From positions 3,497-67,496 of the forward strand of contig JANYKG010000182.1 in assembly GCA_025358205.1 (NCBI GenBank): a DNA stretch of 64,000 bases, written 5' to 3'. The DNA comes from Armatimonadota bacterium. GTDB taxonomy: Bacteria; Armatimonadota; UBA5829; DTJY01. Positions 7,289 through 51,907 of this stretch are shown in pieces. The notes beneath the pieces were generated by a model. That model was not told the origin of the DNA, searched no databases, and saw nothing but the letters and a program-made list of their open reading frames with translations. How positions within the stretch are numbered: position 1 is the stretch's first letter; each line of letters begins with the position of its first letter. Both the position numbers and the translations under genes were made by a program.

Positions 7289-7315
7289 CATTGTTTACGT
7301 TCTTCGCGAACAATG
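7289..7315. repeat. Family-A single hairpin variant, copy A8
   Basis: CATTGTTTACGTTCTTCGCGAACAATG, a diverged version of the CATTATTCACGnnnnnCGTGAATAATG hairpin of family A. Confidence 0.55.
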
Positions 7316-7501
7316 CGTACCAGCGCCGAAGCCGTTGTTCCTGTTAGTTAGACGCGTGAGAGCGATTATTGTTTCATGTCAATCGCTTGATCGGCAAATA
7401 ACCGACCGCGAGCGTCCGTTTGGAACACGTACTTTTCTAACATATCGTACCATTTTGGGGAAATCGTTGGCAAGTCCGCCGACGCCGACGCTCATCCAGG
7501 A

Positions 7502-7531
7502 TTAGACCCCAGAGCGCGCTTGCGGTATAAT
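7502..7531 (+). promoter_or_regulatory. Candidate sigma-70 promoter (TTAGAC-18 nt-TATAAT)
   Basis: TTAGAC at 7502-7507 and TATAAT at 7526-7531, about 30 nt upstream of the strong SD/ATG at 7563. Confidence 0.45.
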
Positions 7532-7562
7532 GCTCTCAGATAGTCTTGGTGAAGGAGATACC

Positions 7563-8970: not shown

Positions 8971-11214
8971 TTGAATAGCAAAATCGAGCTGCCGATTCTG
9001 GGTATGACGTGTGCGCACTGTGCGGCGCGGCTTGAGAAGGGGCTTGGAGCGCTGCCGGGCGTGGAGTCCGCCGTCGTCAACTTCGCGACTGAGCGCGCGA
9101 CTCTCTCATACGATGATGCCCTGCTGACCCGCGATCAGATCGTGCAGGCCGTCCGTGATACCGGCTATGACGTGGCGGAGATTCCGGCTGAGACCACCCA
9201 GGCCGCTGCGCAGGATACCGCGCGCGAGGAACGTGAGGCTGCGTACGACCGGCTGCGCACGAAGTTCGTCGTCTGTGCGGTGATCTCCGTGCCGGTCGTG
9301 TTTGGGACCATGGCCCATTTGCTGCGGTTTGTCCCACACTGGCTAGGCAGCCCCTATCTGCTGTGGTTCCTCGCGTCCATCGTTCAGTTCTGGGGCGCGC
9401 GGCAGTTCTACACCGGCGCAATTGCCGCTACCAGGCACAAAACCGCCGACATGAACACGCTGATCGCGGTGGGAAGCTCTGCCGCCTACCTCTACAGCGT
9501 GGCCGTCATCCTCTTCCCCAGCTTCTTCGCGCAGGCAAAGGGCATTGAAGCCGCGCTTTACTTTGACACGTCCGCTGTCATAGTCACACTTATACTCTTT
9601 GGTCGTCTGCTGGAGGCGCGGGCACGCGGTCGGGCGTCTGATGCAATTCGTCACCTTCTGGGCCTGCAGCCTCGCACCGCACGAATCGTTCGTGACGGCC
9701 ATGACATTGACATAAACATCGAAGGTGTCATAGTCGGCGATGTCATAGTCGTTCGTCCGGGCGAGAAGATACCGGTGGACGGGGTTATTGTTGACGGTTC
9801 CTCTTCGGTTGATGAGTCAATGATCTCCGGTGAACCGATGCCGGTCAGCAAGCGCGAAGGTGACGAGGTGGTCGGCGCCACGCTCAACAAGATCGGCAGC
9901 TTCCGGTTCCGCGCTACTCGAGTTGGCAAGGACACGACACTGGCGCAGATAATCCGCATGGTGGAGGAGGCCCAGGGATCCAAGGCGCCTGTCCAGCGGC
10001 TGGCGGATGTCATAGCGGGGTATTTCGTCCCGACTGTCATAGTCATAGCGTTGGTCACCTTCGGGGTCTGGATGCTCTTTGGTCCGCAGCCGTCGTTCAA
10101 CTACGCGCTGCTCAGCTTTGTGGCGGTGCTGATAATCGCGTGTCCATGCGCGCTTGGCCTTGCGACCCCGACCGCCATAATGGTCGGCACGGGCAAGGGC
10201 GCGGAGAACGGCGTGCTGATTCGCAGTGCGGGCGCCCTTGAGACTGCTCAGGCGGTGACAACGGTTGTCATAGACAAGACCGGCACGCTAACCGAAGGCA
10301 GCCCGGTAGTGACGGACATTGTGGCGATTGGGCTTACCGAGGACGAACTGCTTGCTCTGGCGGCGTCTGCGGAGCGTGGGTCGGAGCATCCGCTGGGCGA
10401 GGCGATTGTGCGGGCGGCTGAGGACCGGCATCTCTCCACCACAGCCCCTTCGAGCTTTGAGGCGGTCCCCGGCAGCGGCATCGTCGCGCAGGTGGACGGG
10501 CGTTCAGTGGTTGTGGGGAATTGGGAGTTTGTAAAGAATCGGACGGATCAGTCCGATCCGACCGATCGGTCTGATGTCAACTTCGCGAACGAAGGAAAGA
10601 CCACGGTCTTCATCGCCGTTGACGGCAAGCCCGCCGGGATTATCGCGGTCGCGGATACCCTGAAGCCGAACTCGGTTGACGCCGTGCGCGGGCTGCATGA
10701 CCTGGGGCTGACCGTCATCATGCTCACCGGCGACCACAAGCGCACCGCGGAGGCGATTGCCCGGCAGACCGGCGTGGACCGCGTGATGGCGGAGGCGCTG
10801 CCCGACCAGAAGGCCGTCGAGGTGAAGAAACTGCAGTCCGAGGGGCTGAAGGTGGCGATGGTCGGCGATGGGATCAACGACGCCCCTGCCCTCGCACAGG
10901 CGGATGTTGGAATCGCGATCGGCACAGGCACGGATGTGGCGATTGAATCGGCGGACATCACGCTGGTGAGCGGCGACCTGCGCGGCGTGGTGACGGCGAT
11001 CAGGCTCAGCAGGGCGACCATGCGCACGATCAGGCAGAACCTGTTCTGGGCGTTCTTCTACAATGTGATCCTCATTCCGGTGGCGGCGGGAATCCTCTAC
11101 CCCATCTTCGGGGTCTTCCTCAATCCGATGTGGGCGGCGGGCGCGATGGCCCTCAGCTCGGTCTCGGTGGTCAGCAACTCGCTCAGGCTCCGAGGTTTCC
11201 GCGCGGTGCGGTGA
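8971..11214 (+). CDS. copA: Copper-translocating P1B-type ATPase
   Basis: 747-aa ORF with a TTG start. N-terminal HMA domain [12 protein letters not shown], then [10 protein letters not shown] (CPC motif), DKTGTLT phosphorylation site and [10 protein letters not shown] hinge. Confidence 0.95.
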
Positions 11215-11258
11215 ACCGCCAAGACGCCAAGATCGCCAACTGGGAGAGAGATAGCCTC

Positions 11259-11283
11259 TAAGGAAGCCAGGGAAGCAGGAATA
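11259..11283 (+). repeat. Family-D motif copy downstream of copA
   Basis: TAAGGAAGCCAGGGAAGCAGGAATA resembles TAAGGAAACCAGGAATTCAGGAACA at 8881-8905 in the same orientation. Confidence 0.45.
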
Positions 11284-11367
11284 GACCGGACTTCCGTCCC
11301 AGATGCAACTTCTCTCGTTTTCGTTTGTCAGCTATAAGGATGCTGGAGCGATTGATCTGGAGGCTGC

Positions 11368-12741
11368 ATGGACCGAAAACACAGGATAGTCAAGTGGGTA
11401 GCATTATCCCTGGCGGTGGTGTTTGGGCTGCCCGGTGTATTCACGTCCCTGGCAGCCGCATTCTTCCAGATCGCGCCATACTTTCTAAGACCCAAGGTTG
11501 ACAGAGAAATAGCAGCCATTAGGGCACGAGGTGAGCCGGTTACGATGGCTGACCTTGCCGGCCCAAAGATTCCCAATTCTCAAAACGGCGCAGTTATCTA
11601 CGAACGCGTCTTCAAAGAGATGGACAAGCCTCAGGTCGCGAAAGACATGGCGGGCTTCAGGTTCTCCCCCTCGCCAAAGGTCCTTGCGGAGCATCCTGAA
11701 TTCTGGGAACAGACTCGCCTCCCCCTCAAACGATGCCGCTACCTGATTCCGTTGATCGAGCAAGCCGCCTCCAAGCAGAAATGCCGGTTCAACATCAATT
11801 GGGAGGATGGACCGCTTGATGTGCGGTTTCCGCATTTGGCTAAGCTGAGGCAACTATCCCGTTTCCTCGCTGTCGATGCTGTAGCAAACGCTCGAAATGG
11901 AAACCCCGCAATGGCCATGCGGTTAATACGGATTGGCTTCATGATGAGCGAGTCACTCAAGAACCAAGCCCACCTCCTGTCACAGATACTGCGAACATCC
12001 CAGGTTGCCAGCATGTCCGTGGCCTTGAGTGAGTCCCTGAGATACGGCAGCATTCGGCAAGACCAAGCAGAGAAACTCTACCACGTTCTGAGGGGCATTC
12101 ACTTGGAACAGGCATACGAGGAGGGGCTGAAGGGCGACCGGGCTCTCGGAATTGCTTTCCTAGCATCAGTAGCGGAGCACCCCAGACGCTCGATACACGA
12201 TACGATGCGAAAGATGGGTTCACGACTTGAGCCCGAATCGCGGTCACCGGAAAAGATCGGCGGCGTGTACCTGAGTTGGGTGTTGAGAGACGAGCTGCTG
12301 TATCTGCGCAGTATGCATAAATACATTGACGCGGCACGGTTGCCATACCGTGAGATCAAGTCCAAGGGACGCGATAAGTCTCTGGATGCCGACCTGCCAG
12401 GGTACGCACTGTACTGCGCTATTCTTCTCCCACTCTCCCCCGGGACGTGGGATAGTTGGGAAAGAGCCCCAACTATGCTTGATGCTGGTCAAGTGCTCCT
12501 CGCGTTGAGCGCCTACAAAGACCGGTTCGGCTCATACCCTGCGAACCTGGGAGAACTGCGGACCAAGCTCGGGTGGAAGATACCGGAGGACCCGTTCAGC
12601 GGGAAGGACTTCATCTACAAGCGCGATGGAAAAGGCTTCCTGCTCTACAGCATCGGCCCCGACCTGAAGGACGACGGCGGGAAGGAGCTGCCGAAGAACG
12701 ACAGGGACAATGGCGACATCGTCTGGCGGATGGAACGGTGA
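11368..12741 (+). CDS. Membrane-anchored hypothetical protein with pseudopilin (GspG C-terminal)-like tail
   Basis: 457-aa ORF with an N-terminal TM segment WVALSLAVVFGLPGVFTSLAAAFF. The C-terminal DPFSGKDFIYKRDGKGFLLYSIGPDLKDDGG resembles the conserved C-terminal motif of type II secretion major pseudopilins. Function is unknown. Confidence 0.55.
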   Translation: MDRKHRIVKWVALSLAVVFGLPGVFTSLAAAFFQIAPYFLRPKVDREIAAIRARGEPVTMADLAGPKIPNSQNGAVIYERVFKEMDKPQVAKDMAGFRFSPSPKVLAEHPEFWEQTRLPLKRCRYLIPLIEQAASKQKCRFNINWEDGPLDVRFPHLAKLRQLSRFLAVDAVANARNGNPAMAMRLIRIGFMMSESLKNQAHLLSQILRTSQVASMSVALSESLRYGSIRQDQAEKLYHVLRGIHLEQAYEEGLKGDRALGIAFLASVAEHPRRSIHDTMRKMGSRLEPESRSPEKIGGVYLSWVLRDELLYLRSMHKYIDAARLPYREIKSKGRDKSLDADLPGYALYCAILLPLSPGTWDSWERAPTMLDAGQVLLALSAYKDRFGSYPANLGELRTKLGWKIPEDPFSGKDFIYKRDGKGFLLYSIGPDLKDDGGKELPKNDRDNGDIVWRMER

Positions 12742-12821
12742 GAGGCGAACCCTTCGACAGGCTCAGGGCAGGCGTTCAACACTCAACACTCAACGCTCAA
12801 CAATGGTAAGGTTCCAGCCAG

Positions 12822-13346
12822 TTACTTCTTCCCCTCAATCATGTCATAGACGTCTTGCCATCGGGCGCGGTGGGCGTCGTCTTCGTAGACCGGCTCGAAG
12901 CCCAGGCGCAGGTATGACTTCAGCGCCGGTATGCGCCCGTCATCCGTGTTGAGCGTGCAGTCCTTGAACCCGTGATCGCGGAAGTAGTGCAGCACCGCCA
13001 GTGTGACAAGGTAGCCGAGCTGCTTGCCCCTGTGATCCGGCAGCGCGCAGACCATGTGCAGATACCCCTTCTCCGTCTCTCCAGGCTTCAGCACCCACGC
13101 ACATGCGGACGCCACCGGCTCATCGCCGCAGGTGATGAAGAAGAGCCGCTCAGGAAGGAACTGCTCCTTGTCGGTGAGTTCCTGATGGACCTTCTCCTCG
13201 GTCCACTCCCCTATCCCCGTGTTCATGATCTCCGCCCACGCGGCCTCGTCACCGGGTAAATACGTACGTAGTAGGTAGCCCTCGGGAAGCGCAAACTCCG
13301 GCAGACTATCGAACCCGTGCATTATCATTTTCAGCTGTCCGGCCAT
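12822..13346 (-). CDS. GNAT-family N-acetyltransferase
   Basis: Track ORF 12822-13364. The ATG at 13346 (MAGQLKM...) has GGGAGA 6 nt upstream. The acetyl-CoA binding block HRGKQLGYLVTLAVLHYF (R/Q-x-x-G-x-G/A context) is typical of GNAT enzymes. Confidence 0.8.
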   Translation of the reverse strand: MAGQLKMIMHGFDSLPEFALPEGYLLRTYLPGDEAAWAEIMNTGIGEWTEEKVHQELTDKEQFLPERLFFITCGDEPVASACAWVLKPGETEKGYLHMVCALPDHRGKQLGYLVTLAVLHYFRDHGFKDCTLNTDDGRIPALKSYLRLGFEPVYEDDAHRARWQDVYDMIEGKK

Positions 13347-13413
13347 TGTATATCTCCCTCTCAAAGTTTGACACTCGGCGGCGGCATCCCTCCGCGGATT
13401 CTTATCTTCTGCA

Positions 13414-13442
13414 TTGACAAACGCGGGTTTCTCTGGTACATT
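13414..13442 (+). promoter_or_regulatory. Candidate sigma-70 promoter (TTGACA-17 nt-TACATT)
   Basis: Consensus -35 TTGACA at 13414-13419, a 17-nt spacer, and TACATT at 13437-13442. The predicted transcript would carry a ~255-nt leader before the FlgM-like ATG at 13705. Confidence 0.5.
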
Positions 13443-13704
13443 GGAGATGTTGGTGAACAGCAGCGGAACCCGGAAAATAACTACAAAGTTTTTTCGAAAT
13501 ACCCTAAAGAAGCGCGGCGAACACGCCGATAATCATAACGAAAACCAATACTAGAGCGCGAAAAAGGCAAACTCTTCGAAAGAAGGGGACGCAAAGCTGA
13601 GGGTCTACCCCCGGACAACCGGGCAGGACAGCCTGGCTACCGTCTCACCTTCGAGGGCTTGTCTTTTCTGTTTTGGGGCCCTCGACAGCAAAGGGGGAGC
13701 ACAA

Positions 13705-14010
13705 ATGCAGATTTCAGCGCAGGAAGTAAACAAACTCACCACGACAGAGAAGCCGGCAGTCTCGAAGCGCGGCAAGTCAAAGGTGGAGTTCAAGCCGATC
13801 GAGATCGAATCGCTGCCGCAGACCAAGGTAGCGGAGCCGGATAAGGCCGAAGTCGCCCGCTTCATGCAGGCGGTGAACGAGGCGTCCGATGTCAGAGATG
13901 ACATAGTCATGAGCTTGAAAGAGCGGATTGACAAGGGCGAGTACAAGGTATCCGGCGAAGAGATTGCGGACATGATGATCCGCCGCATGAAGGCAGACAA
14001 GGTACGCTAG
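13705..14010 (+). CDS. FlgM-like anti-sigma-28 family protein
   Basis: 101-aa ORF with strong SD GGGGGAG 7 nt upstream. The C-terminal VRDDIVMSLKERIDKGEYKVSGEEIADMMIRRM matches the conserved FlgM C-terminal helix pattern (..I..G.Y.V....IA..M). Confidence 0.65.
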   Translation: MQISAQEVNKLTTTEKPAVSKRGKSKVEFKPIEIESLPQTKVAEPDKAEVARFMQAVNEASDVRDDIVMSLKERIDKGEYKVSGEEIADMMIRRMKADKVR

Positions 14011-14049
14011 GCTCGACTGCAGACTGTAATATCATAGCAGACACTATAA

Positions 14050-14077
14050 GGGGTTGTCACGCGCGGCAGCCCCTTTT
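14050..14077 (+). terminator. Rho-independent terminator candidate after the FlgM-like gene
   Basis: GGGGTTG (14050-14056) pairs with CAGCCCC (14067-14073) around a 10-nt loop, followed by TTTT. Confidence 0.6.
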
Positions 14078-14221
14078 GTCATGTGTCCCCCACCCTTCCA
14101 TGTCCACATTGTCCGGTCGACGCGAAATAAACCATGAAACATCTCTACTGCCTGAAGGAATAGCTCGCTCCATACACTAACTATGTCTTAGACCATTGTC
14201 ATAGACATCGGAGCGCACAGC

Positions 14222-15076
14222 ATGGAAGCAAGAAGACGGGATGACATCACGGGCGACGAACCACAGCCGGTGGAGATACTGTCCGTCATTGACATCAACA
14301 AGATTCGCCTCAACCCCAACCAGCCGCGAAAGCATTTTGACGAAGACAGACTGGACGACCTGACAGACTCTATCCGCGAACACGGTGTCATAGAGCCGGT
14401 GATTGTGCGCCCGATGGGGGAAGCTTTCGAACTGGTGGCCGGTGAGCGGCGATTCCGTGCGGCGGTCCAGGCCGGGCTGCACGGCATTCCGGCGGTGGCG
14501 CGGGTGATGAACGACCGTCAGTCGCTGGAGATCGCGCTGATAGAGAACATCCAGCGTGAGAACATCAGCCCGGTGGAGTGCGCCCAGGCGTATCGGCGAC
14601 TGATGGACGAATTCGGCCTCAGCCAGGAGCAGGTTGCCGAACAGGTGGGCAAGAGCCGTTCGACGGTGGCGAACACCCTGCGCCTGCTGAACCTGCCCGC
14701 CCGGATTCTAAGCAGCCTGGAGCGTGAAGAGATCACCGAAGGACACGCGCGGGCGCTCCTCTCCATTGATGACATAGACGAGCAAATCCGCGTGTGGGAG
14801 GCGGTTGTCAAGCAGGAACTGAGCGTGCGTGACACTGAACGCTTGTCAAGGACGCCAAGGATAAGGAGGACGTCCAAGACAGCGGATGTTGCACGTGCAA
14901 CAGGACGTCATGGACAAGCCGACCCGATACTGGCGGACATCGAGGACAAGCTCCGCAGGTTCCTCGGGACCAAGGTCGCGATAACCTCTGACACGATGAG
15001 CCAGGGGAAGATAAGCATTGAGTTTTATGACCAGGAGGATCTGATGAGAATCCTGGATTTGATGTCACAGATGTAA
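14222..15076 (+). CDS. parB: Chromosome-partitioning protein ParB/Spo0J
   Basis: 284-aa ORF. It has the NPNQPRK box, the GERRFRAA (CTP-binding/arginine-patch) motif, an HTH region QEQVAEQVGKSRSTVANTLRLL, and a C-terminal dimerisation segment. No adjacent parA is present. Confidence 0.9.
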   Translation: MEARRRDDITGDEPQPVEILSVIDINKIRLNPNQPRKHFDEDRLDDLTDSIREHGVIEPVIVRPMGEAFELVAGERRFRAAVQAGLHGIPAVARVMNDRQSLEIALIENIQRENISPVECAQAYRRLMDEFGLSQEQVAEQVGKSRSTVANTLRLLNLPARILSSLEREEITEGHARALLSIDDIDEQIRVWEAVVKQELSVRDTERLSRTPRIRRTSKTADVARATGRHGQADPILADIEDKLRRFLGTKVAITSDTMSQGKISIEFYDQEDLMRILDLMSQM

Positions 15077-15101
15077 TCACATTCACAGGAGATGAGCAAC
15101 G

Positions 15102-15629
15102 ATGAGCGAAGTTGTCTATGACGTACCGATCAGCGAAGTGGCGAAACTGCTGTCAAAGAGCGACAGACAGGTGCGCCGATATGTCAAGGAGCGTCGGCTG
15201 AAGGCGGCCCCACTGAGGATTGAGGGGCACGTGAAGCTGATGTTCAGCCGTGACGAGGTAATGGCATTTGGGGAGCAGTTTGTCGCGGACGGCGTGTTCG
15301 GCGAATCAGGGGACGAGATCATCGTGGATGCGCAGGTTATTGGGAAGGACACTTCCACTGACAGCGCTTCAGATGATGACGTTGACGTCTTGGACGTTGG
15401 TGCATCCTCTGTCAAGTATGCCATAGACGTTCTCCGCGAGCAGTTGAAAGACCAGCGCAAAGAGAACAAGGATCTGCACTACCAGTTGGAGCAACGTTCC
15501 GGCCAGGTGGGATTCCTGCAAAGCAGGGTTGAGTCGCTTCAGGATGAGATCAAGGCGCTTATGCCTGCTCCCAAGCCTGAGGCCGTTGATAAGAAACCCT
15601 GGTTCAAGCGGATATTCAGCCGGGATTAG
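15102..15629 (+). CDS. HTH (MerR/excisionase-type) DNA-binding protein with acidic linker, coiled coil and basic amphipathic C-terminus
   Basis: 175-aa ORF starting 26 nt after parB. N-terminal ISEVAKLLSKSDRQVRRYVKERRLKA helix-turn-helix, a D/S-rich linker, heptad-like LREQLKDQRKENKDLHYQLEQ...VESLQDEIKAL, and the tail KKPWFKRIFSRD. Confidence 0.65.
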   Translation: MSEVVYDVPISEVAKLLSKSDRQVRRYVKERRLKAAPLRIEGHVKLMFSRDEVMAFGEQFVADGVFGESGDEIIVDAQVIGKDTSTDSASDDDVDVLDVGASSVKYAIDVLREQLKDQRKENKDLHYQLEQRSGQVGFLQSRVESLQDEIKALMPAPKPEAVDKKPWFKRIFSRD

Positions 15630-15755
15630 CAATGTCATAGTCATGACGTTTGTCATACCCTCACAGCATGTTTCATTGGGGCTATCTGACAATATAGACG
15701 TCTCGTGAGTAACATCGCGTGACCGTTCGCTTTACGTCCTCAATAGGAGCGTGAA

Positions 15756-18791: not shown

Positions 18792-21588
18792 AGTACGCGC
18801 CATTCACCATTCGCCGCTGTTGGCGCTTACACTGTTCATCACTATGCTGCCGGCAGGGTCGTGTCATTCCGCGCAGATTGTGCTTCCTCTCAAGCTGGAC
18901 TTTGGCGCCGCCACGCCAACTGTCTATGTCAAGTATGACAGAGCAGGAGCCGACACGATCTTTGATGGGCGTTATGGCTGGGTTCATCCCCCTATGCTGG
19001 AGGAGAGGGACCGGGGCGGACTAGATGACAGTGACCATGATTTCGTGTTCAGTACAGAGCCTGCGGTGTTCCGCATAACATTGCCTGATGGTGATTATGT
19101 TGTGACTATAACATGTCATGACAGTGCGGCCTCTCATCCATCATTTGTCGTCCGTGCAGATACTAAGATCGGATACGAGATACCCGACATGACTCCGGCG
19201 GATACTCTTACTGTAGTGTTGCGCGGAAGAGCCAGGGACGGATTTCTAGACATTGAGTTCAACCCGATTGTTTCAATATGGTTGGTCAACGCGCTCACCG
19301 TGCGGGGGTTGGAACCCGGCGAGAAGGTTATGTCTGCAACCTGTACGCAGGCCGGAAGAACCTTTCAGTTGGCGGAGCATCCGTTCGAGACGGCTGGTGA
19401 AAGCAAGTTACGCGTGATGAAGGTTCCTGTCTATGACAAGCCAGGGTATCCATCCACCGCGGACTATATGCGAGTGCTGGAGCGGTTTTCGCTTTACGCC
19501 GAGAGGGGATGGCATCCGAATTACAATGGACTGGCTGAGGTTGGCTACTTTGGCGACGGCACGCATGACGAGATGGGGCTGCGCTCAATGGGCAACTTCA
19601 TCTTCACCTGCGCGCTGCTGGCATCTGATCCGGCGTACGATCCGAAGACGACCGCTGTGAGCAGGGATCAACTCCTCGACTATGCGAAACAGTGCCTCAG
19701 ATACATGACTCGCTCGCATGTCACAGGCGACCTTACATGCGCGGACGGAGGCAGGTGGGGCGATCAGTGGCAGTCATCCTGGTGGACCGGCAAGATGGCA
19801 GCCGGCGCGCATCTGATCTGGGCGAAACTGTCGCCGGAAGAGCGCGTTGCCGTCGAACGAGTGGTGGTTCACGAGGCAAATCGGCACTTGGCTCGGGTTG
19901 CACCGGGCGGTGCGTCAAGCGATACCAAGTCAGAGGAAAATGCCTGGGACACCGAGGCGCTGGCGGCCGCGTTAGCGCTTTTCCCTGGGCACGAAAATGC
20001 TCCTAAGTGGTGGCGAAAGCTCCAGGATTTTGCTATGAACACGCTCTCCGCCCCGCAGGACAAGCAGGATTCAACGTTGGTAGACCATCGGGCCGTGAAA
20101 GATATGGTCTACACTACCAACATTCACTCCGATTTCACGATAGAGAACCACGGGGCATACCATTTCTGCTACATGGCCTGTCCTCTGCACTCGCTGGCGT
20201 GGGGCTGGTACAACCTGACCAGCAATGGCCGACCTGTGCCCCAGGCGCTATTTCACCACTACAAAGATGTCTATGACGTCATAGACAAAACCTTTCTGTA
20301 CGATGGGCGGTTTGCGTATATGGCAGGCAAGGACTGGCCCAGGTACGCCTATGGCCTGTCGTTCATACTCCCTGCGCTGGTCTTAATGCAAAAGGAATTC
20401 GGCAATTCAGACGCCCGTCTGTTTGAGAGGAAGCGGTTTCAGACCCTGGAGCGTGAGCAGATCATGAACGCAGACGGCACATTCTACGGCAAGCGTTTCA
20501 CGGCCAACCGAATGCTGAATCGCCCACTGGAGTACGAAACCGATACGTATGCGAATCTGGGCGTATCCTACCTCATGCACAAAATGGACACAAAACCGCC
20601 GATATCTCCGACCGACCCTGATGATTTTCAGCGCAGCGTGGCTGGGACGTTCATCAGCGCCGAGTCAGGGTGGCTGCTGGGTAGGTCGCCAAAGGTGTTC
20701 ACCAGCTTCAGTTGGCGAGACCTGGGCGGCTCGTATCCGATGGGAATATTCGTTCCCAAAGTCTGCGACGACATGGCGGAGTGGGGCAGGGAACAGCTTG
20801 CGGGCAGTATGTCCATCGTTGGCGGCGACCCAAAAAAGCGCCAAGTCGTTTACAACAACGGGCAGTTCGACGGCGGATTCTGGACCGCAGGCCTTGTGAC
20901 TCACTCGGAGGCGGACGGTGCGCCGATGATGAACCAACACCTTGCGTTCGTCTCTCTCCCCGAGGAGGGTATGGCCCTGATAATGGACCATGCGGTTGCG
21001 GTCAAGGATATCACCGTGACCGCGCAGGAGGGATTGAAGTATTATCTCGCTAATGACATATTCAACGGCGGCACGCGCGAGGTTGCCTCTCCTGCCGGCA
21101 AGTTCAAATTGCGCGGGGCGAACACCAACGAACCGTCGCCGGACAAAGCGAATCACGTCATCGGTGAACCGTGGCTTTGTATGGACGAGAAGCTTTCTTT
21201 TGTTGCGTTGACCTCGAATTCGCCGTTCACGGTGCGGGATCTGCGAGGCAGACAGGCGCCGTGGAACAGCATCGAGTATGAGATGATTGACCTGCCCTAT
21301 ATCACCGAGCCGCGTGATTTCTACGCGAACGGATTGGTCAGGTACACGGCGGTGGTCTTGTGCGCCGGGAACGCGCGGGATGCGGCTCGCGTTTCTGCGC
21401 AGAGCAAGCTGATATCGTCCGGCAGTCCGGATGTGAGATGCGCAGTTCTCAGCCGTGATGGCAAACGTAAATGGCTGGTTGCGATCAACTTCGGCGATCA
21501 GCCGGAGCAGGTCAACATTGACATAGATGGACACACTATGACATTTGATGTCAAGGCAATGTCCGCCGAGATAAAGAAACTCGACTAG
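18784..21588 (+). CDS. Secreted 934-aa protein of unknown family (possible alpha/alpha-toroid glycan-active enzyme)
   Basis: Track ORF 18676-21588 overlaps the previous gene by 116 nt. The TTG at 18784 has GGAGG 5 nt upstream and yields the signal peptide MNRVRAIHHSPLLALTLFITMLPAGSCHSA. I recognise no diagnostic catalytic motif. The W/H-rich central region and its genomic context suggest a CAZyme. Confidence 0.6.
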   Translation: MNRVRAIHHSPLLALTLFITMLPAGSCHSAQIVLPLKLDFGAATPTVYVKYDRAGADTIFDGRYGWVHPPMLEERDRGGLDDSDHDFVFSTEPAVFRITLPDGDYVVTITCHDSAASHPSFVVRADTKIGYEIPDMTPADTLTVVLRGRARDGFLDIEFNPIVSIWLVNALTVRGLEPGEKVMSATCTQAGRTFQLAEHPFETAGESKLRVMKVPVYDKPGYPSTADYMRVLERFSLYAERGWHPNYNGLAEVGYFGDGTHDEMGLRSMGNFIFTCALLASDPAYDPKTTAVSRDQLLDYAKQCLRYMTRSHVTGDLTCADGGRWGDQWQSSWWTGKMAAGAHLIWAKLSPEERVAVERVVVHEANRHLARVAPGGASSDTKSEENAWDTEALAAALALFPGHENAPKWWRKLQDFAMNTLSAPQDKQDSTLVDHRAVKDMVYTTNIHSDFTIENHGAYHFCYMACPLHSLAWGWYNLTSNGRPVPQALFHHYKDVYDVIDKTFLYDGRFAYMAGKDWPRYAYGLSFILPALVLMQKEFGNSDARLFERKRFQTLEREQIMNADGTFYGKRFTANRMLNRPLEYETDTYANLGVSYLMHKMDTKPPISPTDPDDFQRSVAGTFISAESGWLLGRSPKVFTSFSWRDLGGSYPMGIFVPKVCDDMAEWGREQLAGSMSIVGGDPKKRQVVYNNGQFDGGFWTAGLVTHSEADGAPMMNQHLAFVSLPEEGMALIMDHAVAVKDITVTAQEGLKYYLANDIFNGGTREVASPAGKFKLRGANTNEPSPDKANHVIGEPWLCMDEKLSFVALTSNSPFTVRDLRGRQAPWNSIEYEMIDLPYITEPRDFYANGLVRYTAVVLCAGNARDAARVSAQSKLISSGSPDVRCAVLSRDGKRKWLVAINFGDQPEQVNIDIDGHTMTFDVKAMSAEIKKLD
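20269..20286. repeat. Perfect 18-bp palindrome GTCTATGACGTCATAGAC (two array motifs head to head)
   Basis: Read directly from the sequence. It is self-complementary over all 18 nt, has the centre TGACGTCA, and is coding (D-V-Y-D-V-I-D-K). Confidence 0.95.
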
Positions 21589-21602
21589 AAGAGGAGATAC
21601 GG

Positions 21603-24600
21603 GTGAAGACGAGACTGTTTGCCATGCTTGTGACTGTGCTAGTTCTGTGCGCGTTTGGAGCGGCGTTTGCTCAGTCGCCGCTGGACAGCGTGCTCGCCAA
21701 ACTGCAGGTCATCAAGGCCGGCGCCAGCGTGAACGCCTGGCGATTTGTGTCCAGGGACGTGCCGAGCGCGATTGCCCCTGACTATGACGACAGCAAGTGG
21801 GTGACCGGCAGCCCGGAGTACCAGTGGGGCACAGGTCCGGTCGGCTGGATGCGTACTACCATAGTCGTGCCGGAAAGTGTGGGCGGCGTATCGGTCGTCG
21901 GATCGAGCCTAACGTTTCGCGCGGGTGTTGACGATGACGGTGAGCTTTACGTCAACGGCAAGCTGGTACAGAAGTTTCATTGGGATCAGTGTTCGGTGGT
22001 TTTGAGCGGTAATGTCAAAGCCGGTGACAAGTATGTCATAGTCATCAAGTGCCTCAACTCCGGTGGACCGGGGCGTTTGCTTTCCGCGAGCGTGGAGTAC
22101 AGCGCTTTGGGCGACATCCGCGCACCGGTCCAGGAGTTCGCAGCAGAGTTGTCCGGCGCGAAGCAGTTCGTGGATAGAGAGAAAGACAAGGCAACACAAG
22201 ATAAAATGAACCTCGCTCTGTCCGCAGCAGCAAGCAAGCTCGATACATCGGCGCTGGATCGCGGGGACAAACAAGCTTTCCTCATGTCTATGACAGCAGC
22301 GCGCAAGGAACTCGGCCCCATAGCCAAGCTCGCGAAGGCATACACCACGCATCTTATCGGCCACGGGCATATTGACATGAACTGGCTGTGGCTCTGGCCG
22401 GAGACGCTGGACGTGTGCAAAAACACCTTCACCACCGTGCTGAAGCTGATGGACGAGTATCCTGAGTTCCGCTATTCCCAGAGCCAAGCATCCACCTACA
22501 TCGCCATGGAAGAGACCCAGCCGGAGCTGTTCAAGCAGATTCAGAAGAAGGTTGCGAGCGGTCAGTGGGACATAACGGGCGGCACATGGGTTGAGGGCGA
22601 TATGAACATGGCGTCCGGTGAGTCCATCGTTCGCCAGATTCTCTATGCCAAGCGCTACTTCAAGGAGAAGTTCAACGTTGAGCCGGTGATGTGCTGGGAA
22701 CCTGACACGTTCGGCCATGCGTGGACGATTCCGCAGATTCTTGCGAAGAGCGGTTTGAAATACTACTATTTCATGCGGTGCGGCAGAAACGAGCCGATCT
22801 TCTGGTGGGAAGGACCAGACGGCTCCAGGGTGCTGGCCTACAACCGCGGCTCATACAACGGTTCCATCGGCGAAGATGCCGGTGACTCGGCGCTTGACGT
22901 ATACAACCGCTACGGTACAAAGGACGGCATGTTCGTGTATGGCGTGGGCGACCACGGCGGCGGCCCGACACGAGCGGACATCGCGAAGGCGATCGAGCTG
23001 GAGAAGAGGAGCGTCTACCCGACGGTCAAGTTCGACACGACAACCGGTTTCTTCAGCACACTGGAGAAATCCGGCAAGAAGTTCCCAGTCATCAAGGATG
23101 AACTCAATTTTGTGTTCGAGGGCTGTTACACCACCCACTCTGACGCCAAGAAAATGAATCGCGACCTGGAGAATCTGCTTCCTACCGCCGAGATGTTCTC
23201 GGTGATTGCGGAGCCTTTTGGGTTCAAGTACCCGCGCGAGGATTTCGTGAAGGCCTGGAGGAATACCTGCTTCAACCAGTTCCATGACATCTTTGACGGC
23301 TCGGCGATCCACGGGTCGTATGAATACTCCAAAGGGCTTTACGAGGAGTCGAAGAAGATCGGCGACACCGCCCTGCAGGGATCACTGAATGCTATCGCCG
23401 GGGATGTGGATACCCTGGGAATGGGCATTCCGGTGGTGGTATTCAATCCGCTTTCATGGGCCAGGACCGATGTGGTGCGGTTGGATGTGCCGAAGTCGCT
23501 CATCGGGAATGCATTCAGGGTCAGTGACGACAAGGGCGAGGTAATGCCTTCGCAGGCACTCGACGGCCAAATTGTCTTTACTGCTGTGGACGTGCCTTCG
23601 GTCGGATACAAGGTCTACCATGTCTATGACATGAAGACACCGTTGGCCATCCAGTCACCGGACGGCGCGCGCGTTATTGAGAACGAGTTCTTCAAGGTGA
23701 CGCTGGACGACAAGACCGGCGCTATCGCGAGCATCTTCGATAAGAAGGCCAATCGCGAGGCGCTTACCGGTCAGGGTGATGCGCTCCAGTGCCTGTGGGA
23801 GGCTCCGCACGGCATGTCGGCATGGGGCATCGGCGCCATCACAAAGACCGAGGCCGCGCACCAGGTATCATCGTCGGTTAACTCATATGGCCCGGTCAGA
23901 ATACTGCGTGTCAAGCATGACTATGACAAATCATCGTTTGTCCAAGACATCATTCTCTACACTGGAGTGCCTCGCATAGACTTCAAGATGACTGCGGACT
24001 GGGGACAGACCGGCTCGTCGGAGATAGGTGGACTGATGCTTAAGGTCGCATTCCCCATCAATGTCAAGGACGGCAAGGCCAGGTTCGAGATACCATTTGG
24101 CAGCATCGAGCGTCCGGCGAATGGCAACGAAGTACCTGGCCAGAAGTGGATTGATGTATCCAGCGGCGACTATGGAGTCAGCCTCTTGAATGACTGCAAG
24201 TACGGGTTTGACGTAAAGGACAACATCATGCGGATGACCCTCCTTCGCGCGCCGGATGATCCTGATCCGACGTCCGACCTGGGGCAGCACGAGATCAACT
24301 ACTCGCTCTACCCTCATGCCGGAGACTGGAAGCAGGCGGACACGGTGAGAAGGGGATATGAGTTCAACAACCCGCTCATTCCGTTGGTAACTACTCCGCA
24401 TCTCGGCAAGATGCCCAAGTCGTACTCCTTCTTGAAGGTCGAGCCGTCCAATGTCATAGTCACGGCGCTGAAGAAATCGGAGTCTGGCAACAATCCTATC
24501 ATGCGCTTCTACGAATGTGAAGGCGAGCCTTGTACTGCGGAACTGACATTTGGAATGCCGGCTACCGGAATCTGGAACTCAGATCTTATGGAGCGCAGGA

Positions 24601-24785
24601 CTGCCGGCAGCAGTGGTGTGAAGAACGGTCATGTTAAGGTTCCGCTTAGGAAGTGGGAGATCAAGACCATTCATGTCAGGAACGTTCGCGGTGACATTTG
24701 GGGCAGTGCAGGTGCGCTTGCGATAGGGGGAGCACAAATGCAGAATGTGATGCGAGACATCAAATCTTCTATGTCCAAGCCGTAG
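21603..24785 (+). CDS. Secreted GH38 alpha-mannosidase with N-terminal sugar-binding-like domain
   Basis: 1060-aa ORF with a GTG start and GAGGAG SD, plus a signal peptide. The GH38 signature is HLIGHGHIDMNWLWLWPET with downstream conserved blocks (QFHD, CKYG). It has a ~35-aa C-terminal extension relative to the second GH38 in the window. Confidence 0.9.
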   Translation: MKTRLFAMLVTVLVLCAFGAAFAQSPLDSVLAKLQVIKAGASVNAWRFVSRDVPSAIAPDYDDSKWVTGSPEYQWGTGPVGWMRTTIVVPESVGGVSVVGSSLTFRAGVDDDGELYVNGKLVQKFHWDQCSVVLSGNVKAGDKYVIVIKCLNSGGPGRLLSASVEYSALGDIRAPVQEFAAELSGAKQFVDREKDKATQDKMNLALSAAASKLDTSALDRGDKQAFLMSMTAARKELGPIAKLAKAYTTHLIGHGHIDMNWLWLWPETLDVCKNTFTTVLKLMDEYPEFRYSQSQASTYIAMEETQPELFKQIQKKVASGQWDITGGTWVEGDMNMASGESIVRQILYAKRYFKEKFNVEPVMCWEPDTFGHAWTIPQILAKSGLKYYYFMRCGRNEPIFWWEGPDGSRVLAYNRGSYNGSIGEDAGDSALDVYNRYGTKDGMFVYGVGDHGGGPTRADIAKAIELEKRSVYPTVKFDTTTGFFSTLEKSGKKFPVIKDELNFVFEGCYTTHSDAKKMNRDLENLLPTAEMFSVIAEPFGFKYPREDFVKAWRNTCFNQFHDIFDGSAIHGSYEYSKGLYEESKKIGDTALQGSLNAIAGDVDTLGMGIPVVVFNPLSWARTDVVRLDVPKSLIGNAFRVSDDKGEVMPSQALDGQIVFTAVDVPSVGYKVYHVYDMKTPLAIQSPDGARVIENEFFKVTLDDKTGAIASIFDKKANREALTGQGDALQCLWEAPHGMSAWGIGAITKTEAAHQVSSSVNSYGPVRILRVKHDYDKSSFVQDIILYTGVPRIDFKMTADWGQTGSSEIGGLMLKVAFPINVKDGKARFEIPFGSIERPANGNEVPGQKWIDVSSGDYGVSLLNDCKYGFDVKDNIMRMTLLRAPDDPDPTSDLGQHEINYSLYPHAGDWKQADTVRRGYEFNNPLIPLVTTPHLGKMPKSYSFLKVEPSNVIVTALKKSESGNNPIMRFYECEGEPCTAELTFGMPATGIWNSDLMERRTAGSSGVKNGHVKVPLRKWEIKTIHVRNVRGDIWGSAGALAIGGAQMQNVMRDIKSSMSKP

Positions 24786-24903
24786 CCGATGGGTCCCATT
24801 TGAATGCAATATCCTCACCTTGCATGGCAAAGTGAAGGAAAAGCGTCTCGCTCGGTGAAAGTATCTTTGGATAATCGTTTTCTCTTGGAAAAGGAACTCC
24901 AAC

Positions 24904-26436
24904 ATGCGTAACCACAATGCGGTGATGTGCGCATTGCTGCTCTTGACTATCAGCGCGCTTCAAGCCGGGGCAGCAGTGAAGCTCCCCACCATCTTCAGCG
25001 ACAACATGATGCTGCAGAGGGGGATTTCTGCGCCGATCTGGGGAACGGCCGGTCCCGGTGAGCTGGTGACCGTGAAGATCGCCGGGCAAAAAGCTATCGC
25101 AAAAGCGGGCAAAGACGGCCGATGGGTGGTTCGCCTCAAGCCGTTGAAAGCCGGCGGCCCGTATGACATGACCGTCTCCGGCAAGCATAAGATCGTCGTG
25201 AAGAACATCCTCGTCGGCGAAGTCTGGTTCTGCTCGGGCCAGTCGAATATGGTGATGACGGTCAAACAATGCGACAATGCCAAGGCCGAGATCGCCGATG
25301 CCAAGAACTACCCTGAGATTCGGAACTACACTGTGAGCTTAAAAGCCTCGCCCAATCCTCTGAATGACACCGTCGGGAAGTGGGAGGTCTGCAGCCCTGA
25401 GACGGTAGGGAAGTTCACAGCCACGGGGTACTTCTTCGCGCGCGAGATACACAACACATTAAAGGTTCCGGTTGGCATCATCCTCAGCGCATGGGGCGGG
25501 GCCAACATGGAGTCATTCATGCGCCTGGACGCGCTGAAGGCTCACCCAGTTGAAGCCAAACCGTACTTCAAGCTCTGGGAACAGCGCAAGGCCGCGTTCC
25601 CGGCGGAGCATGCTGCGGCTCTGAAGGCTGCTGCAGAGGCCAAGGCGGCTGGAAAGTCCGCGCCGAAGATGCGGACCCTTGAAGGGCATCAGGCCCGCCC
25701 TTCGTCCATCTACAACGCTATGATCTCACCGATCATACCCTACGGTATCCGAGGTGTGCTCTGGGCGGGCGGCAAGTCCAACCGGTTCCGAGCGCTGGAA
25801 TATCGGACTCTCATGCCGGCAATGATTCAGAACTGGCGCAAGTCGTGGGGCCTTGGGGACTTTCCATTCTACCTGTGTCAGATGGCAAACTGGATTTCCC
25901 CCAACCCGGATGAGCATTGGGAGGAACTGCGTGAAGCGATGCTCAAGACGACAAATCTGAAGAACACTGGTATGGTGGTGACGATAGACATAGGCGACCC
26001 ACACAACGTGCATTTCACAAACAAGCAGGAGGTCAGTCGCAGGTTCGTACTGCAAGCGGAGGCGAAGACCTATGGAATGGATGTGGTATGCGATGGCCCG
26101 ATCTACGTGTCTATGACATCAGAGCGCGGTGCAATCCGGCTTCACTTCAAGTCGCTTGGCGGTCTGGCAGCGCGCGGCGGAGGTGCGTTGAAGGGGTTTG
26201 TCATAGCTGGTGGGGATCGTAAGTTCGTCCCAGCAGATGCGGTGATAGACGGCGACACGATACTTGTTCGAAGCGAGAGCGTGGCATCGCCGGTGGCTGT
26301 TCGGTACGCCTGGGAGATGAACCCGGACTGCAATCTCGTGAACAGAGCCGGTCTCCCAGCGTCACCGTTCCGTACTGATGCGTGGCCTTTCTGGGAGGGT
26401 GTTCACGAACAGGGCCCTGCAGATGATGGAGGATAG
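24904..26436 (+). CDS. Sialate O-acetylesterase-like (SASA/DUF303) carbohydrate esterase
   Basis: 510-aa ORF with a signal peptide. GEVWFCSGQSNM is the characteristic SGNH-like GQSNM motif of 9-O-acetylesterases. Confidence 0.8.
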   Translation: MRNHNAVMCALLLLTISALQAGAAVKLPTIFSDNMMLQRGISAPIWGTAGPGELVTVKIAGQKAIAKAGKDGRWVVRLKPLKAGGPYDMTVSGKHKIVVKNILVGEVWFCSGQSNMVMTVKQCDNAKAEIADAKNYPEIRNYTVSLKASPNPLNDTVGKWEVCSPETVGKFTATGYFFAREIHNTLKVPVGIILSAWGGANMESFMRLDALKAHPVEAKPYFKLWEQRKAAFPAEHAAALKAAAEAKAAGKSAPKMRTLEGHQARPSSIYNAMISPIIPYGIRGVLWAGGKSNRFRALEYRTLMPAMIQNWRKSWGLGDFPFYLCQMANWISPNPDEHWEELREAMLKTTNLKNTGMVVTIDIGDPHNVHFTNKQEVSRRFVLQAEAKTYGMDVVCDGPIYVSMTSERGAIRLHFKSLGGLAARGGGALKGFVIAGGDRKFVPADAVIDGDTILVRSESVASPVAVRYAWEMNPDCNLVNRAGLPASPFRTDAWPFWEGVHEQGPADDGG

Positions 26437-26441
26437 AACGC

Positions 26442-27686
26442 ATGGATAGACAAATCATTGAGGGCATGATTTCCAGGGCGCTCGCAGGCGTCAAGATAAC
26501 GGACATTCACACGCATCTGTACTCACCGGAGTTCGGCGGGCTGATGCTGTGGGGCATAGATGAGGTGCTGACCTATCACTATCTCGTCGCCGAGACCATG
26601 CGCTGGGTGGACATGCCGTATGCGGATTTCTGGGCCATGTCTAAGACAGAGCAGGCTGATCTGATATGGCAGACGCTGTTCATCGAGCACTCGCCGGTCA
26701 GCGAGGCATGCCGTGGGGCGCTTACCGTGCTGAAAGGCCTGGGGCTGGACGTGTCGTCACGCGATCTGACCGCGTTCCGGGCGTTTTTCGCGAAGCAGAA
26801 CCCGGTTGATCATGTTGACACCGTGTTCGACACAGCCGGAATCGGTTCCGTTGTGATGACCAATGATCCTTTTGACGAAGCTGAACGACAGATCTGGCTC
26901 AGCGGAGGAAAGACCGATCCAAGATTTCACGCCGCCCTGCGGATAGACCCGCTGCTGAACCTGTGGGACTCCACCTGTCCGAAACTCAAGGCTCTTGGCT
27001 ATGACGTCTATGACACCTTTGACAAAGGCTCTCCTGAGGGAGTTCGTCGTTTCCTTACCGATTGGATCGAGCGGATGGACGCGCTTTACATGGCCGTCTC
27101 TCTGCCGACGGAGTTCGCCTATCCTGAGGATTCGATCCGCTGCCGCATCATTGATGAGTGCGTCATACCGGTGTGCCGTCAGCTAGGCATTCCGTTTGCG
27201 CTCATGATAGGCGTCAAGCGTCAGGTGAATTCGGCTCTAAAGGGGGCTGGCGACGCGGTGGGCTACGGTTCGGTTGGCTCAGTCGAGCGACTGTGCGCCC
27301 GATACCCTGACAACAAGTTCATGGTCACCATGTTGGCGAGAGAAAACCAGCACGAGTTGTGCGTGGCCTCGCGGAAATTCAGGAACTTGCTCATCTTCGG
27401 GTGCTGGTGGTTCCTGAACAACCCGAGTCTGATTGACGAGATCACCCGCATGAGGCTGGAACTGCTCGGTTTAAGTATGATACCTCAGCATTCCGATGCC
27501 CGCGTGCTGGACCAATTGATCTACAAGTGGGCGCACTCGCGTCAGGTCATCGGCGCGGTGCTGGTGGATAAGTACACAGACCTGGCAGCGACCGGGTGGG
27601 CGCCGACACAGGATGAGATCAACAGAGATATCGAAGGGCTTTTCGGCGGAAATTTCTGGTCGTTTATAGAAAGAAAGGGCGTCTAG
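26442..27686 (+). CDS. Amidohydrolase-superfamily protein, uronate-isomerase-like
   Basis: 414-aa ORF with GGAGGA SD. ITDIHTHLYSPEF...YHYLVAETMRW resembles the D-x-H-x-H-L...DHY...MR N-terminal pattern of UxaC-type isomerases. The assignment is distant. Confidence 0.55.
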   Translation: MDRQIIEGMISRALAGVKITDIHTHLYSPEFGGLMLWGIDEVLTYHYLVAETMRWVDMPYADFWAMSKTEQADLIWQTLFIEHSPVSEACRGALTVLKGLGLDVSSRDLTAFRAFFAKQNPVDHVDTVFDTAGIGSVVMTNDPFDEAERQIWLSGGKTDPRFHAALRIDPLLNLWDSTCPKLKALGYDVYDTFDKGSPEGVRRFLTDWIERMDALYMAVSLPTEFAYPEDSIRCRIIDECVIPVCRQLGIPFALMIGVKRQVNSALKGAGDAVGYGSVGSVERLCARYPDNKFMVTMLARENQHELCVASRKFRNLLIFGCWWFLNNPSLIDEITRMRLELLGLSMIPQHSDARVLDQLIYKWAHSRQVIGAVLVDKYTDLAATGWAPTQDEINRDIEGLFGGNFWSFIERKGV

Positions 27687-27725
27687 CCGCCGATCAACGC
27701 GGATTAGCGCAGATGGGAAGAACTG

Positions 27726-51906: not shown

Positions 51907-51907
51907 G

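Follow-up and report, generated by a model that had tools for sequence, protein, structure and literature searches.

A dense array of short sites around an origin-proximal parB operon in Armatimonadota and a helix-turn-helix protein as its candidate binder

What does a nine-nucleotide word do when it recurs 22 times within some 17 kb around a chromosome-partition gene, and which protein would read it there? The question is raised by a 64,000-nucleotide stretch of the genome of an Armatimonadota bacterium (GenBank assembly GCA_025358205.1, contig JANYKG010000182.1, positions 3,497 to 67,496 of the forward strand; this whole stretch is called the window below), in which the word GWCTATGAC crowds around parB and the gene directly downstream of it, which encodes a 175-residue helix-turn-helix (HTH) protein. 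An earlier reading of the window made from the letters alone (the sequence-only reading) had taken this block for a localized array of binding sites, comparable to the ram sites of RacA, for a DNA-binding protein encoded next to it. That proposal is supported by our finding that the array travels with the parB-HTH gene pair in related genomes, by control loci centred on dnaA, and by the RacA-like DNA-binding domain predicted for the HTH protein.

A local array of short sites

Counted on both strands, GWCTATGAC matches the window 23 times, against 0.83 ± 0.94 times in dinucleotide shuffles (largest count 4), and 22 of these 23 copies fall within 9577-27014, the remaining one lying at 33345 (binomial P = 6e-12 for 22 of 23 copies inside 27% of the window). 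Our recount agrees exactly with that of the sequence-only reading, and the strong enrichment that it had estimated by hand is borne out. The longer form TGWCTATGACA, again found 14 times, is expected 0.06 times. The 8-mer CTATGACA, for which a k-mer count returned the figures given earlier, occurs 23 times within the block and once elsewhere in the window, and a de novo ranking of k-mers in the block versus the rest of the window places it and its sub-words on top. When the motif is relaxed to TGWC-N3-GWCA there are 22 matches in the block and 1 outside, and a 13-nt position weight matrix (PWM) at >=11 bits gives 38 matches in the block, as against 5 in the 46 kb outside it, adding ~16 degenerate copies to the 22 exact ones. 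The density of sites in the window array is ~1.3-2.2 per kb over 17 kb.

Twenty of the 22 exact block sites are intragenic, the other two (14198 and 15634) being intergenic. The earlier claim that the array is not an artefact of one codon pair holds in so far as the motif appears in several codon contexts and is not reproduced by synonymous-codon shuffles of the block genes, a control that the sequence-only reading had itself proposed (mean 1.7 coding 9-mers, maximum 5, n = 200, against 20 observed, with the codons supplied by the motif itself re-used in the shuffles); it needs qualifying in that 17 of the 20 coding copies stand in one codon register (GTC-ATA-GWC or GWC-TAT-GAC). The motif has a stop codon in one frame per orientation. 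Because both the dinucleotide shuffles and the synonymous-codon shuffles fall far below what is observed, we conclude that the array is a real and local feature for which neither chance nor codon usage comes close to accounting. Its members are as follows; the two intergenic copies and the 18-bp palindrome are where they had been reported.

9576-27014, no strand: motif array, 22 exact GWCTATGAC copies and ~16 degenerate ones (PWM >=11 bits)
9577, 9727, 9742, 10036 and 10267 (span 9577-10275), minus strand: five exact sites in the P-type ATPase gene, GTC-ATA-GWC = V-I-V/D on the coding strand
12843-12851, minus strand: exact site in the GNAT gene, a minus-strand gene, codons V-Y-D
14197-14207, minus strand: intergenic site TGTCATAGACA, ending 15 nt 5' of the parB ATG
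15114-15122, plus strand: exact site in the HTH gene, codons 5-7, V-Y-D
~15418: degenerate site in the HTH gene, on the conserved K-Y-(V/A)-I-D codons
15633-15643, minus strand: intergenic site TGTCATAGTCA, starting 4-5 nt past the HTH stop codon
17573+, 17838-, 19429+, 20269+, 20278-, 21780+, 22035-, 22286+, 23622+, 23919+, 24453-, 26109+ and 27006+: 13 exact sites in the downstream glycoside-hydrolase-type genes
20269-20286: 18-bp palindrome made of two overlapping sites
13899 (TGACATAGTCA), 14771 (GACATAGAC), 16151, 16645, 18921 and 26638: examples of degenerate copies found with the PWM

The 23 exact copies are preceded by T in 19 cases and followed by A in 18, and weak extra preferences for A at -2 and T at +10 extend the consensus to (A)TGWCTATGACA(T); as written for candidate probe DNA, the array motif is TGTCTATGACA. 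It had been described as an inverted repeat around a 3-nt centre, and two halves are indeed present, but the site is only a pseudo-palindrome in which the GACA half is strict, the left half is GWCA and the TAT centre is invariant and asymmetric. A larger repeat unit, such as a miniature inverted-repeat transposable element (MITE) or a repetitive extragenic palindromic (REP) element, was considered and ruled out: flanks are random beyond ~13 nt in the window and in relatives, and since conservation ends there, no longer repeat element contains the motif. The orientation switch near parB that had also been proposed is visible as a bias in the window (left 0+/8-, right 10+/5-) but is not reproduced in the 12 related loci described below, where strong sites run 13+/22- to the left of parB and 12+/13- to the right of the HTH gene.

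The window has two GH38 alpha-mannosidase paralogues, one in the array (21603-24785, plus strand) with 6 exact sites and the other just outside it (29896-33057, minus strand) with none; since the outside paralogue lacks exact sites, the motif is not derived from GH38 protein sequence. We note also that a 457-residue open reading frame (ORF) at 11368-12741, which has no Pfam match, holds zero copies of the motif and leaves a 2.6-kb gap (10275-12843) in the array.

The array in related loci and its place near the origin

We compared the window with 12 related loci, seven from species genomes and five found via exact-protein look-ups, which span 41-62% GC. In all 12, parB lies directly upstream of the HTH gene on the same strand, and at tblastn-confirmed loci the HTH proteins are 44-58% identical to that of the window. 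A search for the same array around parB in related genomes had been suggested by the sequence-only reading, and it is there: CTATGACA is enriched in 12 of 12 loci, with 4-18 copies per locus versus 0.3-1.4 expected from an order-3 Markov model (90 versus ~9 in total), and it is the most frequent 8-mer in three of them (L005, L012 and L014; the handles are our own). The flanks of the 8-mer in the relatives, taken independently, show Y-G-W upstream and T downstream, which is the consensus of the window, and the conserved motif common to the window and the relatives is YGWCTATGACAT. Site density in the relatives peaks at 0.96 per kb in the 2 kb holding the HTH gene and declines to 0.1-0.2 per kb by ~±8 kb.

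Two dnaA-centred loci from the same organisms served as controls. The parB-HTH locus L012 has 10 CTATGACA copies and 14 PWM sites, versus 2 and 6 at its dnaA control L013, which lies 31 kb away on the same 1.56-Mb contig; L014 has 10 and 17, versus 0 and 2 at its control L015, which was matched through the same DnaA protein sequence. Dense arrays are also present in L005 and L008, though these have only parB-HTH in common with the window, their neighbouring genes including nitroreductase, methyltransferases, FAD-binding oxidoreductase, phosphofructokinase and transporters. In orthologous genes that the window has in common with a relative (GH38, for example), the sites stand at different positions, and because of this we take the array to be kept by turnover rather than inherited as protein sequence. 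In the relatives, sites also form clusters of 2-3 at multiples of 6 or 9 bp (18 and 27 bp; 6 and 12 bp), as in L004 (5429-5480), L014 (3921-3970) and L008 (5197-5215), which resemble the 9-bp overlapping pairs 20269/20278 and 26999/27008 of the window; such tight clusters may be cooperative multi-site units.

Certain positions recur over the 13 loci formed by the 12 relatives and the window. A site within ~50 bp upstream of the estimated parB start is found in 10 of 13, a PWM site covering HTH-gene codons 4-7, including V-Y-D (+10/+13), in 8, a site on the K-Y-V-I-D codons of the HTH gene in 9, and a site <=35 bp past the HTH stop in 4. Because the site upstream of parB recurs in 10 of 13 loci, it is a candidate operator of the parB-HTH operon. 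We observe that V-Y-D (codons 5-7) and K-Y-V-I-D are encoded by the motif itself (GTC TAT GAC and GTC ATA GAC), as they are in most relatives; the motif thus encodes conserved residues at two positions, and protein and presumed binding site therefore constrain each other there. A literature search combining Armatimonadota and ParB found nothing relevant.

The block genes are, in order, those for the P-type ATPase, the 457-aa protein, the GNAT acetyltransferase, a c-di-GMP-type riboswitch with flgM, parB, the HTH gene and several glycoside-hydrolase-type genes. The features that place the array with respect to partition and origin are these.

14222-15076, plus strand: parB, with Pfam ParB_N, HTH_ParB and ParB_C
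14887-14902, no strand: parS, perfect 16-bp palindrome TGTTGCACGTGCAACA inside parB
15102-15629, plus strand: HTH gene, 175 aa, starting 25 nt after the parB stop
48015-52387: rnpA-yidC-jag-mnmE group, divergent, ~4 kb upstream of dnaA
56692-58128: dnaA, followed by recF and dciA

Judged by its sequence, the ParB of the window is a canonical chromosomal ParB: its N-terminal CTPase domain with GERRFRA, its parS-reading HTH (GKSRSTVANTLRLL) and its C-terminal dimerisation domain are all intact, and its best relative in the PDB is Thermus Spo0J (1e-58), with Noc also among the homologues. This ParB is also encoded on contig JAYSNH010000021.1 of the Armatimonadota metagenome-assembled genome GCA_043723985.1. 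No further parS-like site at <=2 mismatches exists across the window besides that at 14887-14902, and a parS of the form TGTTNCACGTGNAACA lies at the matching place inside parB in 10 of the 12 related loci. No parA was found beside parB, the upstream neighbour being flgM or, in relatives, an unrelated enzyme wherever it was identified, and no ParA-type ATPase was found among the annotated genes of the 64-kb window; neither the window locus nor, to that extent, those of the relatives has the ParABS arrangement in which parA is adjacent to and co-transcribed with parB.

Since the window holds dnaA, the block is origin-proximal: it lies 30-47 kb from dnaA, and dnaA is 41 kb from the parB-HTH locus. 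On the 1.56-Mb contig of a relative, the HTH gene is 31 kb from dnaA; in L018 and L019, recF-dciA is no more than ~10 kb away; and in nine assemblies, judged from contigs of matching length, a single contig (60-775 kb and 1.56 Mb) appears to carry both the HTH gene and dnaA. The origin proximity of parB-HTH is conserved. We further note that dnaA-recF-dciA occupies 56692-60116 with no dnaN between, an order repeated in L013 and L015, and that two large secreted-type proteins (52783-56418) are encoded between rnpA-yidC-jag-mnmE and dnaA. All block genes (8971-28958) but one are on the plus strand, pointing at dnaA, in DNA of positive GC skew, and the block would be head-on to replication if oriC adjoins dnaA. 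In the 1.56-Mb relative (L012/L013), parB-HTH is across dnaA and co-directional; this position on the opposite side of dnaA suggests an inversion around the origin in one lineage.

Directly upstream of parB stands flgM (13705-14010), with a c-di-GMP-I / c-di-GMP-I-GGC riboswitch aptamer 5' of it (13557-13645, plus strand). The riboswitch-flgM pair is upstream of parB in the window and in all 7 relatives tested, where the riboswitches lie at the following positions.

L004: 8460-8556
L006: 8118-8226
L007: 5125-5222
L010: 8030-8141
L012: 8180-8279
L014: 8195-8284
L017: 8334-8423

A hairpin followed by TTTTGT past flgM (~14041-14075) suggests transcription separate from that of parB. A consensus scan between flgM and parB gave no plus-strand promoter-like site, the sigma-70 consensus being one that may not fit Armatimonadota promoters. 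The partition operon might conceivably be linked to c-di-GMP signalling all the same. The block was also considered as a defence island, and PADLOC models run on ten block proteins gave nothing relevant.

The HTH protein and its remote relatives

The family of the HTH protein comprises 92 clusters in a large protein collection, and all of its named members are from Armatimonadota. In the alignment the N-terminal ~55 residues are highly conserved, with KSDRQ-RRY-K invariant in the predicted recognition-helix region, and are followed by a variable acidic linker and a conserved helical segment, VKYVIDALREQ...LHYQLEQRSGQVGFLQGKVE.LQEE. The window protein ends in a basic/aromatic C-terminal tail, KKPWFKRIFSRD, for which the family consensus is RKPWYKRLFGR. 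In an AlphaFold2 model, residues 8-63 form a winged HTH (a strand and two helices, then a beta-hairpin wing and a further helix), 67-98 a disordered acidic linker, 101-153 one long helix with a predicted local distance difference test (pLDDT) score of 85-97, and 167-172 a short terminal helix. The long helix is predicted to form a coiled coil, a central region of the oligomerisation type, and this part of the protein matches only generic coiled-coil families and PDB chains.

Pfam HTH_17 is found in 31 of 32 members, matches to MerR/MerR_1 being weak. When the model was compared with the PDB by Foldseek, the RacA-DNA complex 5i44 ranked first (E = 5e-3, target TM 0.62-0.68). Alignment by hhalign of the DNA-binding-domain (DBD) profile of the family with the RacA DBD, the sequence of which we verified against 5i41_B, gave E = 1.2e-4, a probability of 55% and 33% identity, and pairs the family-invariant residues S20, R26, Y27, K29, G42-H43 and F48 with RacA S13, R19, W20, K22, G33-H34 and F38. 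Mutation of RacA R19, like that of RicO R18, abolishes DNA binding (bioRxiv 10.64898/2026.03.06.710092). The tail RKPWYKRLFGR, for its part, fits the pattern of KKGFLKRLFGG in Escherichia coli MinD, which, translated from NC_000913.3, ends ...EEEKKGFLKRLFGG. Fold, architecture and aligned arginine agree with RacA, RocS and RicO; membership of the HTH protein in a family with them is not established.

A profile search of 1.84 billion representatives returned only about six core representatives together with ~100 weak full-length matches of 150-220 aa, which share the layout and the signatures ...L(A/S)GQ(V/L)GF(L/Y)QA(K/R)... and ...PWW(K/R)RLFG at the tail. These ~100 uncharacterised proteins, with HTH_17, a coiled coil ending in L(A/S)GQ(V/L)GF(L/Y)QA and a PWW(K/R)RLFG tail, are encoded nearly all on short contigs, and by their sequences look like an unnamed superfamily. 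The two that we examined (L020 and L021) are on phage- or plasmid-like contigs without ParB, one near a Prim-Pol/AAA_25 replicase and the other near a phage capsid gene, a terminase and an S24 repressor. In L021, an array at 4084-4420 lies over the gene (4116-4682), with 16 of 27 CGGACA copies at 4089-4411 and CGGACA(C/G) as its unit; in L020, a run of YTGATCA at 7313-7623 lies over the gene at 7342-7833. Both arrays cover the upstream region and the 5' half of the protein's own gene, partly in the segment for the variable linker, and such a gene may be a single-gene "tether plus centromere" cassette. These own-gene iteron arrays are circumstantial support for the view that proteins of this kind bind arrays at their own locus, and they echo the connection between RocS and the pSK1 Par protein that is drawn in PMC11500499.

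What the array may do

We are almost certain that the array is a selected protein-binding array. Between the candidates named by the sequence-only reading, ParB and the HTH protein, the evidence favours the latter, because ParB is canonical with its own parS inside its gene and because the recognition-helix region (KSDRQ-RRY-K) and the motif are both invariant across genomes of 41-62% GC; the adjacent HTH protein is thus the probable binder. For anchoring of this protein at the membrane, which the tail suggests, our preference is slight. Three things are inferred here: binding of the array by the HTH protein, its oligomerisation, and its contact with the membrane and/or ParB. On balance we favour, with some reserve, a composite reading in which the sites on either side of parS are bound by the HTH protein, and this protein organises the centromere region near the origin or tethers it, perhaps to the membrane; it is the most economical reading given the plan shared with known anchors, the RacA-like DBD, the MinD-like tail, the place of the gene in what looks like one operon with parB and that operon's position at the centre of the array.

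In such a system, oligomers of the HTH protein would occupy ~20-40 sites, from ~5 kb to the left to 12 kb to the right of the single parS, a zone about the size of that over which ParB-CTP clamps usually spread, and HTH protein and ParB would form one large origin-proximal nucleoprotein complex. The C-terminal tails would hold or organise this complex at the cytoplasmic membrane. With no parA adjoining parB, the complex would anchor and organise the centromere region along the lines of RacA-ram, RicO-ricS and RocS, and the conserved site just 5' of parB would probably also serve autoregulation of the parB-HTH operon.

Several points weigh against this reading. The link between protein and motif is one of association, and two conserved sites fall on codons of the HTH gene that are themselves conserved, so that these two could reflect constraint on the protein. 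The evidence for localisation consists of the window, the 12 parB-HTH loci and two same-organism dnaA-centred controls, and the absence of a ParA-type gene from the Pfam gene tables of 6 loci is local (±10 kb). As for the protein, the Foldseek E-values are weak (5e-3), with GlnR, CarH, mycobacteriophage Xis and BldC scoring nearly as well as RacA; homology to RacA is only borderline by hhalign (probability 55%); and when the PDB was searched by HMMER, neither the profile of the full-length family nor that of its HTH domain retrieved RacA, the matches being coiled-coil or homeodomain noise only. DUF536 is found neither among the Pfam matches of the window protein (E<=1) nor among the 25 commonest families over 32 members. 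The hydrophobic moment of the tail is mixed (0.08-0.66 across members versus 0.45 for MinD), and the tail contains a conserved proline. Finally, the density of sites is far above that of ram or ricS, and the mode of action may differ.

The HTH protein might bind the motif mainly as a transcription factor, acting as an autorepressor of parB-HTH and a regulator of neighbouring genes, with no role in organising the chromosome. Proteins with MerR/Xis-type HTHs are usually regulators, and the conserved site immediately 5' of parB in 10 of 13 loci, together with the sites past the HTH stop in several, would suit such a role. Dozens of sites over 10-20 kb are, however, unlike an operator set, 20 of the 22 exact block sites being intragenic and scattered in long ORFs, and the array persists where the flanking genes are entirely different; moreover, the long coiled coil and the MinD-like tail are absent from ordinary regulators, and we hold this account to be unlikely. 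We give still less credence to the idea that ParB, or a second ParB specificity, reads the motif as Noc reads its binding sites (NBS), the HTH protein being an accessory. An array that is centred on parB and spans a zone of ParB-spreading size would fit it, as would the fact that ParB paralogues such as Noc evolved new site specificities, but this ParB is closest to canonical Spo0J/ParB, its parS-reading HTH is standard, a perfect parS sits inside parB here and in 10 of 12 relatives, and the motif is unlike parS or NBS.

A binder encoded elsewhere, for example a nucleoid-associated protein or an SMC-loading factor, would make the association with the HTH gene indirect, both being tied to parS, and the correlative nature of the link between protein and sites leaves room for it; yet the boundaries of the operon itself carry sites at fixed, recurring positions, recognition helix and motif are both invariant, the remote relatives carry arrays of their own at their own genes, and the closest structural and architectural analogues are binders of site arrays, so that this explanation strikes us as improbable. 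The view that the array has no function, and reflects codon or amino-acid usage, the base composition of a block that was inverted or came in by horizontal transfer, or an uptake-type word found genome-wide that happens to cluster here, could draw on the single codon frame of 17 of the 20 coding copies (V-I-V/D or V/D-Y-D) and on the positive GC skew of a block whose genes face the origin. This explanation is effectively refuted, since synonymous shuffles give 1.7 copies where 20 are observed, two exact copies are intergenic at the boundaries of the operon, and the word is also over-represented beside parB-HTH in 12 other genomes, where its positions are not orthologous, and has few copies in the control loci; the codon shuffles, the dnaA controls and the 12 relatives likewise speak against the uptake sequence and the horizontally acquired block that the sequence-only reading had listed as alternatives.

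The reading in which the HTH protein binds the array and tethers the parS region can be set against known systems. RacA, the chromosome anchor of Bacillus subtilis sporulation, has 25 ram sites, mostly inside genes and within ~600 kb of the origin, and is tethered by DivIVA, and RicO of Staphylococcus aureus has nine ricS sites over ~700 kb (bioRxiv 10.64898/2026.03.06.710092). A MinD-like membrane anchor is described for RocS of Streptococcus pneumoniae in PMC13042908 and PMC11500499. RocS interacts with ParB and is reported to bind DNA without a defined sequence motif. HTH plus coiled coil is the common plan of RacA, RicO and RocS, and the hosts of RocS and RicO have ParB without ParA. The present system is like RacA-ram in its small N-terminal MerR-like winged HTH followed by a coiled coil, in having RacA as its top structural match with RacA R19 aligned to invariant R26, and in its origin-proximal set of short sites that lie mostly in coding sequence. 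It is unlike RacA-ram in that the ram sites are spread over ~600 kb as against 17 kb here and are a GC-rich inverted repeat unrelated to the motif, and in that RacA, from a different phylum and without detectable homology by HMMER, has no C-terminal amphipathic helix, depends on DivIVA as tether and is encoded by a gene not linked to parB (spo0J). With RicO-ricS it shares an HTH, a coiled coil and, putatively, a C-terminal amphipathic helix, the bridging of specific origin-proximal sites to the membrane that RicO performs and that is proposed here, a host that may lack ParA, as that of RicO does, and a site upstream of the protein's own operon, as one ricS is. Nine intergenic, non-palindromic ricS sites nevertheless contrast with dozens of mostly intragenic, pseudo-palindromic sites in 17 kb around parS, ricO lies outside any parB operon, and homology is not established. 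RocS, too, combines HTH, coiled coil and MinD-like tail, in a host without ParA as the present one may be, but it has no defined motif, it has the DUF536 segment with three conserved glutamines that marks the RocS and pSK1 Par subgroup and is not detected here, and rocS does not adjoin parB.

Other comparisons are more distant. Noc carries an amphipathic helix and recruits chromosomal DNA to the membrane via many dispersed sites, and is in this respect, as a site-specific DNA binder with many sites, like the HTH protein proposed here; it is, however, a ParB paralogue with an N-terminal helix and sites over most of the chromosome except the terminus, whereas the protein here has a MerR-type HTH and its sites are in the parS neighbourhood only. 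pSK1 Par, a single-protein plasmid partition factor, is similarly an HTH and coiled-coil protein that acts on repeats beside its own gene, but unlike it and the mobile relatives, the Armatimonadota branch is chromosomal and fixed by parB and parS, with an array of many kilobases as against a few hundred bp. Some bacteria have many parS sites clustered near parAB, and these too are a dense origin-proximal cluster of short sites around a par locus, but the element repeated here is not parS, of which a single copy is present. Relative to RacA and RicO, the cis-element described here is one to two orders of magnitude denser, occupies 10-20 kb centred on parS, and belongs to a gene hard-wired to parB.

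By analogy, a system in Armatimonadota that works like RacA, RicO and RocS would be a possible counterpart of these proteins. A bolder proposal, which we put forward tentatively and regard as rather doubtful, is that Armatimonadota replaced or supplemented ParA with a parB-operon module, in which a RacA-like HTH-coiled-coil protein with a MinD-type anchor would coat a 10-20 kb array centred on parS and pin the ParB complex to the membrane, and that this protein would be the domesticated chromosomal branch of a wider, unnamed phage and plasmid family of single-gene cassettes with an iteron array inside their own coding sequence.

Origin-anchoring proteins built from an HTH, a coiled coil and an anchor to membrane or pole (RacA, RocS and RicO) are known only from Firmicutes, and the distribution of such anchors outside that group has been left open (bioRxiv 10.64898/2026.03.06.710092). 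The locus described here is a candidate counterpart in a deep-branching, mostly uncultured phylum and, unlike the Firmicutes systems, it combines a cis-element that is dense and precisely defined with fixed genetic linkage to parB and parS. It offers ready-made material for biochemistry, in the form of a 175-aa protein, a site of 11-13 bp and a natural 18-bp double site, and is a case in which to test how ParB-CTP clamps share their DNA with a second protein that binds an array there. The relatives on mobile elements, with arrays inside their own genes, hint at an evolutionary source of chromosome anchors.

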